A stretch of DNA of 64,000 nucleotides from Syntrophales bacterium (GTDB lineage Bacteria > Desulfobacterota > Syntrophia > Syntrophales > UBA6807). Both the position numbers and the translations under genes were made by a program. The DNA is taken from positions 192,001 to 256,000 of the forward strand of contig JAXGPA010000001.1 of the NCBI GenBank assembly GCA_040767195.1. Direction: 5' to 3'. Below, piece by piece: positions 23,867 through 25,903 of the stretch (positions within the stretch are counted from its first letter, which is position 1; each line of letters starts with the position of its first letter). The notes under the pieces are model-generated. The model was not told the DNA's origin. It saw only the letters and a list, made by a program, of their open reading frames with translations, and did no database searches.

Positions 23867-25903
23867 ATGGAGGCCAGGCGGTTTTTTCCCTTCCTTTTTA
23901 CAGCCGTTTTTCTCTTCCTTCTGCTTTGCCCTTCAGGCCGCGCATCAAGCGCCGTGAAGGTCCACAGGGATGTGTGGATGAAAAACGAATTCGGTGAAAG
24001 GATCACGCCGAAGGACAATTTCGAGGATCCATACAGTCCCAGAAACACGTGCGGGAGCTGCCACCCATACTCGACCATCACCTCGGGGTTCCACTTCCAG
24101 CAGGGGTTCGACGAAATGAGCGACACCTATGATCCCCGGAAACCCTGGATTCTATCCCCGGGAATGTACGGAAAGTGGTGACCGCCGGCCAATCGGTCCG
24201 GCCGTGCAGCCGCCAAAAAAAACAGCGACCCGAAACAGATCGACCTCACCGCCTATGACTGGATCGGCGGGTTCGGAAAATTGAACCCCGCCAAAAAGAT
24301 CAAGAGCCCGGCCTGCGGGTGGTGCCACCCCGGCGGCGGTTCCATGGAATACGGACGCAGGCCTGACGGGACGCCGGACTTCTCCATGAACCTGATCCAG
24401 GCGGAGAGACGGAACACGAACAGCCTGGACGGGGATTTCATGTCCCTCATTTCACCGGACGGCAAAAGCCATTTCAAGGAAAGCGGGGTCGTGGAGGGGG
24501 ACTGCCTCATCTGTCACACCGGAAGATACCAGTTCGGCAAGCGTAACCAGCAGATCAATCACATGAACTACCGGTGGGCCGCCACGGCCGGCGCCGACAT
24601 CGCAAAGATCGAGGGGTCCATCTTCAAATTCGACAATCCCGATGCCCCCCCGGGTGCCAAGGGTTTCATGGACGGCACCTGGAATTTCTCGGAAAGACCG
24701 AAAGTGACCTACCGATGGGACGACCGGAATCTTTTCAGCCGGGAAGGGCAGCTGAAAGGCACACTGATCTCAAAAACCGTGGAGGTTAAAAACTGCCTCC
24801 AGTGCCACCAGGGACCGGACGCCAAGAAGGTGGGGTGGGTTCACAAACCGGAATTCGACGCCCATTACAAGGCGGGATTCCGATGCACCGACTGCCACGG
24901 TCTGGTGGGAAACACCCGCTACGGCCGCATGGAACACCAGATCGCCAAGGGCTGGCATCCCCTGGGCAGTGTCCGGGACGACCTGGACGGCGTGGACATG
25001 ATGACGTGCCAGGCCTGCCACATCGCGGGCCGGTATCGGCCCAGCCGGCCCGGCCTGCCGGAAAAAGCAAAAGACCCGACGAAAAAGCACGCGGAGAAAT
25101 TCCCCGACGTGGCTTTTCACTTCAACCGGATCAGCTGTGCCAACTGTCACTCCACGGGGCAGCCCGGAATGTCCGGATACCTTCTCGACATGGGACCGGG
25201 GGGTCAGATCTGGTACACCGCGGCCACGCTGGAAACCATAACCTGGTCCGATGATTTCGGGAAACTCGCCCCGAAACCCTGGAAACCCTGGAGCACCCTC
25301 TTCGACGCCCGGAACGGCCTTGGAGAGCAGTACATCCCCCAGGTTCCCAAGGTGTCCCAGTGGTTCGGTGAGAAGATGGACAACCTGGAAGTTCGGCCGA
25401 TCTCTCTCAGGTACGTCAAGAAAGCTTTCGGGACCCTGAATTCCCGAACCGTCGTGGACGTCCGGAACACCGACGGCCAGGCGGTTAAAAAACCCACCGT
25501 GGCCAGGGAAGAGGAAATCCGGGCCATGATCGAGGCCCTGACAGGAATGGGGTTCACCAACGTGGTGTTTGTCTCCGACAGGGTTTACGAGCTGAGAGAC
25601 GGGCAGGTAACCGCCTATGAAGACCCGCTGACGGCCCACCCCCACACCTTCCCTGTCCATCACAACATCGTCCCTCTGGACCGCGGGACGACTTACGGGC
25701 AGAAAGGGAAACCGGAGGGCTGCCGGGACTGCCACTGGAAAGACTCGGAATTCTTCACCAAGATGCTCATTCGAAATCCCGGCCGGTTCCTACTGGAGGA
25801 CTACCCGGTACCCCGGGAGCCGAACGCGGAACCCCAGATGATCCCCTGGGGCTTTGACGAGGTCCCTGTTCCCCCGGAACTGAAGGCGAAAAAGGAACCC
25901 TGA
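23867..25903 (+). CDS. Secreted octaheme c-type cytochrome with in-frame TGA at codon 105 (probable selenoprotein, 678 aa)
   Basis: ORFs 23867-24181 and 24281-25903 are in the same frame (offset 414 nt) with no other stop between; readthrough gives SPGMYGKW-U-PPANRSGRAAAKKNSDPKQIDLTAYDWIGG; signal peptide plus 8 CxxCH (CGSCH, CGWCH, CLICH, CLQCH, CTDCH, CQACH, CANCH, CRDCH). Confidence 0.8.
24184..24207 (+). promoter_or_regulatory. Candidate SECIS hairpin
   Basis: CGGCC (24186-90) pairs with GGCCG (24200-04), loop AATCGGTCC, immediately 3' of the TGA. Confidence 0.5.

Follow-up and report, generated by a model that had tools for sequence, protein, structure and literature searches.

The gene at positions 23867–25903 of the 64,000-nucleotide window, the whole stretch of Syntrophales DNA analyzed here, very probably encodes a selenoprotein: judging from its sequence and that of its relatives, it specifies an octaheme cytochrome c of 678 residues with an Otr-like fold, in which the UGA at codon 105 would be recoded as selenocysteine (Sec). 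The gene and all the features located below lie on the forward strand. The frame of 678 codons contains one internal TGA (24179–24181, codon 105, in the context SPGMYGKW-TGA-PPANRSGRAAAKKN) and ends with another (25901–25903). An ORF caller cuts the gene into a 104-residue piece starting at the ATG at 23867 and a 540-residue piece starting at a TTG at 24281. A sequence resembling a Shine-Dalgarno element, AAGGAG, lies ahead of the ATG (23855–23860). One CxxCH motif precedes the TGA (CGSCH, residue 62; 24050–24064) and seven follow it, namely motif 2 at residue 150 (CGWCH, 24314–24328) and motifs 3–8 at residues 213, 310, 340, 381, 424 and 619 (24503–25735). In a hydropathy scan the only hydrophobic segment comprises residues 3–21, within a probable signal peptide (23867–23953, with a putative cleavage site), and the TTG-started piece has none. 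The mature chain has no free Cys. The continuous frame, the CxxCH count and the N-terminal hydrophobic segment support the original prediction of a single exported octaheme protein. No sigma-70 promoter scored above threshold around the gene; a perfect TTGACA followed 17 nt on by a weak −10 element (TACTTT) occurs below the scanner threshold at 23760–23788.

Contigs from four sequencing runs belonging to four studies span codon 105, the study of one RNA run being a possible source of the assembly, and no difference at 24179–24181 is among the best-supported ones listed for these contigs. The RNA-run contigs cover the gene, which is to be taken as sequence coverage only. Codons 106–138, between the TGA and the TTG, retain 67–97% protein identity in all seven TGA-bearing relatives tested, which matches the conservation elsewhere in the gene; among homologs, conservation sets in only at about residue 33. 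The gene is under purifying selection on both sides of the TGA. Because 12 of the 13 neighboring genes checked terminate with TGA, UGA is not reassigned genome-wide, and its reading as Trp or Gly was rejected.

The conservation of the codon supports Sec at this position: TGA recurs in close and distant relatives, and Cys is found in sister lineages. In a class-level sample of 339 genomes, 91 contained a homolog, seven of them with the TGA and 84 without it. All six class genomes with at least 71% identity over residues 32–278, our own included, have the TGA, so that the expectation that close relatives would share it was borne out in each of the other five. The same column, two residues after the lysine of a GK pair, holds TGA in 14 different contexts, drawn from 20 loci, and Cys in 11. 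When a phylum sample of 401 genomes was searched with a distant Cys-type query, 61 genomes matched, 33 of them with a TGA; counted by place, 35 of 68 matches contained one TGA. Thirty distant Desulfobacterota loci were fetched; 18 have TGA at the codon-105 site, in the contexts GK[FMW]-U-PP or GRW-U-TP, and 12 have none there. Cys occupies the column in 7 of 17 distant full-length proteins. Neither TAA nor TAG was ever seen at the site in the loci read.

Among 120 near proteins listed, 97 cover the site, with Leu in 36, Gln in 18, Ser in 12, Gly in 10 and Cys in 10, as counted in a protein database that cannot hold TGA genes at full length. The protein listing and the genome search agree that members from Syntrophales mostly have neither Sec nor Cys in this column. 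A chalcogen residue at codon 105 is therefore not universally required in the family, and the nearest relatives have TGA or Cys. Of the observations that the original prediction named as refuting, a non-Cys residue at the site is seen in part, most Syntrophales homologs carrying Leu, Gln, Ser or Gly. In a tree of 102 rows (a quick, unrooted reconstruction with long branches flagged, excluding short fragments and all but eight Gly-Gly rows), the gene falls in a nine-row TGA clade whose sister group consists of two Cys proteins (SH-aLRT 99), and Sec and Cys rows interleave across the family. The suspicion of systematic mis-annotation was supported as well, as Sec members are split in databases and the closest database matches are N-terminally truncated.

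A candidate bacterial SECIS element is located 21 nt past the UGA, at 24199–24212, with a CGGC/GCCG stem and a CGUGCA loop. The underlying motif, GGC-CGT-Gnn-GCC at +18 after the TGA, is present in 14 of 14 near TGA loci, in five of eight Cys loci and in one of 13 other loci encoding G-R-x-A; CGT makes up 14% of the Arg codons in the family genes compared. Across the genome, the motif, which was derived from family genes, follows a single one of 70,365 TGA triplets, namely codon 105. The helix is 93% paired in these loci, with a C–G to U–A change in three of the 14; pairing was as high in 5 of 500 shuffles, a significance inflated by kinship among the loci. The bSECIS model as given in the available part of PMC13188914 is matched in loop size, in the G at position 2 and in the 21-nt distance from the UGA. 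Its published limits are satisfied by 17 of 18 distant TGA loci, and the hairpin of our gene folds at −6.7 kcal/mol, weaker than the limit of −7.5 (same source). When longer windows are folded, a different hairpin is favored, and its stability does not exceed expectation (z −0.8 to +0.4). An upstream hairpin preferred by minimum free energy was rejected, being less conserved and 73% paired. Rfam gave no match around selA, selB or the octaheme gene.

The Sec machinery that had been expected in the genome was recovered in part. In the host assembly (2.39 Mb in 13 contigs, rated 98.8% complete; the same-genus genome G001 has 3.3 Mb), selA and selB score above cut-off, and four formate dehydrogenase alpha (FdhA) genes carry TGA in the Sec position together with hairpins. 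HMMs, a covariance model (applied to 150 of 357 candidates), a motif scan and searches with the G001 genes all failed to reveal selC or selD there; a ‘SeC’ prediction made by ARAGORN with a low threshold (C1:675192) was discarded as not tRNA-like. G001 has both genes. The G001 blocks flanking selD (C48:12000-29700) and selC (C30:28000-47700), which include ORFs that we take to encode an alanine racemase-like protein, UvrA, Mfd and NadA, have no orthologs in the host assembly; uvrA is absent from it by HMM, and no tRNA-Asn was found in it. Since these blocks, uvrA and tRNA-Asn are missing too, the absence of selC and selD likely reflects an assembly gap, despite the rated completeness. In seven other TGA-bearing genomes tested (G001, G015, G252, G258, G260, G284 and G391, with G061 set aside), selD is present in all seven and selC above cut-off in five. 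The selD match in G284, a genome carrying the TGA gene, lies in two frames (C3:552135-553065), with an apparent frameshift near profile position 151. Besides its canonical selC on C30, G001 has a second tRNA-Sec-like gene directly 3′ of selB (C15:7918-8005, L092; 53.6 bits, UCA anticodon loop).

These data bear on the reading of the TGA as a true stop, whether a nonsense mutation, a mark of a pseudogene or a relic left by loss of selC and selD. We regard it as highly improbable. The two genes missing from the host assembly and the non-Cys residues of many homologs are consistent with it. It is opposed by the recurrence of the same TGA across families and classes, never replaced by TAA or TAG, and by the Cys sisters and the selection acting on both sides of the codon. 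Intact selA and selB, the four TGA-containing FdhA genes, the concurrent lack of the selC and selD flanking genes, uvrA and tRNA-Asn, and the selD and selC genes of the other TGA-bearing genomes argue in the same direction.

Sequence searches give little information on the protein itself. Pfam returned generic multiheme matches only and NCBIfam none above cut-off; in PDB, neither the protein sequence nor a family profile retrieved a relevant entry. An AlphaFold structure prediction (mean pLDDT 89; about 43–55 in the loop carrying U105) matched only the octaheme tetrathionate reductase Otr of Shewanella oneidensis (1SP3), in Foldseek with an E-value of 6e-6. In structural comparison, 341 residues aligned with 1SP3 (Z 11.8, rmsd 4.5, model 1–642 on chain 1–436), and the next match had a Z of 3.5. 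A 201-residue N-terminal model (pLDDT 72, loop below 50) gave no structural match at a Z of at least 2. The two proteins share the fold from end to end, eight CxxCH motifs in register and, by alignment and count, a conserved Lys ahead of heme 2 and seven spare His residues. They differ in sequence (14–18% identity), in length (the octaheme is about 200 residues longer) and in the position of the chalcogen: in Otr, the Cys or Sec follows the Lys, 10 residues ahead of heme 2, whereas here the Sec precedes the Lys. Against the Otr HMM, TIGR04315, the octaheme scores 5.4 bits (cut-off 375), and the genome contains no match. Thus, the octaheme resembles Otr, falls outside TIGR04315 and carries its Sec at a different site.

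The catalytic site of Otr is built from heme 2, its Lys ligand and a Cys residue, according to the available text of 10.1101/2023.04.20.537704 and PMC13562315. Motif 2 of the octaheme is the counterpart of this heme, and Lys117 (24215–24217) is, by alignment, the candidate for its axial ligand. The Lys (AKKN) was placed on the GK lysine of Otr with a probability of 91% by hhalign at the module level, from which the Otr register was taken; a whole-length hhalign was out of register and was discarded. Lys117 and seven non-motif His residues (33, 76, 333, 357, 408, 418 and 599) are conserved at about 100% in the family alignment A1, the count expected for seven bis-His hemes and one Lys-ligated heme. 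From the fold, the alignment and this count, we consider it likely that the protein has an Otr-type architecture, with seven bis-His hemes and an open, Lys117-ligated heme 2. The NNF-[C/U] position of Otr aligns with W132/I133, where there is no Cys, and U105 is situated 12 residues ahead of Lys117, in an inserted loop.

Of 30 classical Otr loci read in the phylum, 13 contain a TGA in NNF-U (L197, L199, L202, L203, L208, L211–L214, L216, L217, L219 and L221). This TGA form is probably the GenBank-annotated Sec Otr tabulated in PMC13188914, as far as the available part of that paper describes it. Many of the TGA-bearing classical Otr loci have an extra Cys (SNWCRC) just ahead of heme 2.

U105 may be catalytic or heme-proximal, as the original prediction held; the loop that carries it is of low confidence in the model. 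Indirect support for its proximity to heme 2 comes from two patterns in the family. In the GKG lineage, all 13 loci with Sec or Cys at the site have kept the first Cys of motif 2, and all 31 without Sec/Cys have lost both motif-2 Cys residues; few independent events underlie these counts. In addition, heptaheme variants from three genomes have lost the Sec loop, the Lys and heme 2 together, while the downstream genes for the rhodanese, the CbcL-like protein, ResB and CcsB are kept. Within the GKG lineage, the heme-2 motif becomes CGWTH where Sec/Cys is kept (L029, L109, L021, L047, L112 and L113) and loses both Cys residues where it is lost (L028, L030 and L036). A Se–S redox pair or an unusual, possibly single-thioether heme attachment may replace CxxCH at heme 2 in this sub-lineage. 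The heptaheme variants (L191:1990-3621, L192:5014-6552 and L193:4962-6530; also P0126 and P0127) parallel MmcA. Short-loop family members retain heme 2 and the Lys and have no Cys.

The genes downstream appear to form an operon with the octaheme gene. An exported tandem rhodanese, with Cys92 in an FYCESPWC loop of domain 1, is encoded at 25906–26673, starting 2 nt past the octaheme gene. It is followed by a CbcL-like protein (26645–28543) with nine CxxCH motifs, a cytochrome b-like domain (PF01292, 29.8 bits for a cut-off of 30.1) and six hydrophobic segments, and by a ResB/CcsA-type cytochrome c maturation protein (28614–29783) and a CcsB maturation protein scoring above cut-off (29780–30601). 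Of the 63 near loci whose downstream sequence extends for 1,300 nt or more, 62 have the rhodanese and CbcL-like genes following in this order. The rhodanese Cys is kept in 17 of 17 loci with Sec or Cys; lineages without Sec/Cys keep both genes, with the rhodanese Cys in 37 of 46. Many distant members contain a fused cytochrome b domain, the only NCBIfam match above cut-off among distant members, which again ties the enzyme to the quinone pool. The neighbor is likened by architecture to CbcL of Geobacter sulfurreducens, with which it shares nine c-hemes and a six-helix cytochrome b, and from which it differs in being tied to a dedicated octaheme and rhodanese. In CbcL, electrons flow out of the membrane into the periplasm (PMC9129911, in its available part). 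A fusion of octaheme and rhodanese, P0078, includes the rhodanese signal peptide and is probably an assembly artifact.

Our best model, to which we give an even chance, is a quinol-fed periplasmic sulfane-sulfur reductase; the octaheme probably acts as the terminal enzyme in a small respiratory module that reduces sulfur. SelB very probably recodes UGA105 as Sec by means of the hairpin 21 nt downstream. The resulting 678-residue protein would be exported and would receive its eight c-hemes, probably through the ResB/CcsB proteins encoded nearby. Seven bis-His hemes would then serve as a wire, with heme 2 ligated by Lys117 and open. U105, in the loop inserted just ahead of the Lys, would most likely line this open site as a nucleophile. 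Menaquinol would be oxidized by the CbcL-like neighbor, its electrons passing through the nine hemes of that protein to the octaheme wire and finally to heme 2. The rhodanese would carry sulfane sulfur on Cys92, delivering or buffering an S–S substrate. The Sec could then attack the S–S bond of polysulfide, rhodanese persulfide, tetrathionate or thiosulfate, and heme 2 would reduce the Se–S adduct with release of sulfide, much as proposed for MccSep in the available text of PMC13510729. The weakest step is the substrate class: the conservation of the rhodanese in 62 of 63 loci points to sulfane sulfur, and we see a sulfur compound as evenly balanced against other substrates.

The main rival takes the protein as a genuine selenoprotein that acts mainly as an electron conduit, like MmcA, with a dispensable Sec/Cys that tunes or ligates heme 2; quinol electrons would be passed to a partner or an extracellular acceptor in syntrophic growth, or electrons would be taken in. 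It owes its rank to the fact that the operon survives where Sec/Cys, and in some cases heme 2 as well, has been lost: Sec/Cys is absent from most Syntrophales members, GKG lineages have lost one or both motif-2 Cys residues, and the operon persists beside the heptaheme deletion variants, so that the module can exist without that chemistry. In MmcA, which serves as a conduit, heme 2 and the Lys are likewise lost (10.1101/2023.04.20.537704, available part). We nevertheless find this role unlikely for the gene studied here, which keeps motif 2, Lys117 and a Sec with its SECIS; Sec is costly and yet retained across the phylum, and a rhodanese with an active-site Cys accompanies the octaheme.

If the open heme is catalytic, its substrate could instead be nitrite, hydroxylamine, NO or a selenium oxyanion rather than an S–S bond, in detoxification or a minor respiration. 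Otr, whose native function is called cryptic, reduces nitrite and hydroxylamine (10.1101/2023.04.20.537704), and MccSep also reduces selenite (PMC13510729), in the parts of these papers that were available. The short-loop members with heme 2 and Lys and no Cys would suit direct oxyanion binding. The conserved rhodanese points away from such substrates, and this reading seems to us somewhat less likely than the conduit. That the heme nitrite reductase sites known to us include no Sec also counts against it. Less probable again is the reverse direction, in which sulfide, polysulfide or thiosulfate would be oxidized at the Sec/heme site with electrons going to the quinone pool. The direction of a cytochrome b/c quinone module is not fixed by sequence, and the Cys-at-heme enzymes TsdA and SoxAX run oxidatively (PMC13510729, available part). 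However, CbcL has been characterized as transferring electrons from membrane to periplasm (PMC9129911, likewise in part), and a fermentative syntroph would presumably have no strong acceptor for such electrons.

Returning to the sulfane-sulfur reductase, its closest functional precedent is MccSep/ExtKL (GSU2937-2936), described in the available part of PMC13510729 as a Sec/heme polysulfide reductase. Both are periplasmic multiheme cytochromes with one UGA-encoded Sec, split by annotators, and both have a rhodanese-like gene in the cluster. MccSep has five hemes, Sec325 in a C-terminal Ig-like domain and a His/Cys-ligated heme (same source), whereas the octaheme has eight hemes, its Sec follows heme 1 and precedes heme 2, and its mature chain contains no other free Cys. 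The MccSep/ExtKL HMM, NF040886, does not match the octaheme. Together with the heme count and Sec position, this bears out the suggestion that the family is distinct from ExtKL. As a precedent for a multiheme selenoprotein, ExtKL stands; by fold, Otr is the more informative relative. MmcA (TIGR04314) is likewise Otr-derived, and many octaheme-family members show weak similarity to its HMM. It lacks heme 2 and the Lys and is encoded in an Rnf operon (10.1101/2023.04.20.537704, available part), whereas the octaheme keeps both and its locus is not an Rnf operon. In Dethiobacter, weak Otr/SirA homologs encoded beside rhodanese genes were linked to growth on thiosulfate, according to the accessible part of PMC10376724.

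Multiheme selenoproteins are already known, in MccSep and, by annotation, in Sec-Otr. The literature searched, supplements and subscription papers aside, gave no description of the octaheme family or its Sec site, and the available portions of PMC13188914, PMC11492766, PMC1914089, PMC8840924 and 10.1101/2022.02.24.481543 do not mention them. The family comprises 950 representatives at an E-value of at most 0.001, and no curated model covers it. We tentatively suggest, while holding it somewhat short of probable, that this is an undescribed phylum-wide selenoenzyme family in which Sec was placed at an Otr-type Lys-ligated heme independently of classical Otr, in a different loop, and which, with a rhodanese and a quinol oxidase, would constitute a third type of sulfur reductase combining heme and Sec. 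The family adds to MccSep and Sec-Otr a further set of multiheme selenoproteins, with Sec at a third position. The natural series of Sec, Cys, no chalcogen and deleted site within one conserved operon makes the role of the site directly testable. If the model is true, ‘fermentative’ Syntrophales would have a hidden sulfur respiration. The samples holding the locus are mostly digester and sludge, and a search for dsrA gave nothing in the two genomes of the genus; sulfur respiration is conceivable in such digester syntrophs.

Other observations concern the family and the window. Longer family members of about 870–910 residues have a repeated C-terminal segment (L029, L058, L071, L109, L112 and L113); L115 has a frame of 1369 codons, and P0130 and P0146 are proteins with 15–16 hemes. 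The region 15400–17200 of the window belongs to an rRNA operon with tRNA-Ala and tRNA-Ile (C1:207257-207412), and the short ORFs called there are spurious. An interspersed repeat of about 100 bp (L080:2460-2557) occurs at no fewer than 20 places in the host assembly and is common to G001 at about 80% identity; two copies lie within the window, near 30970–31070 and 41150–41240.
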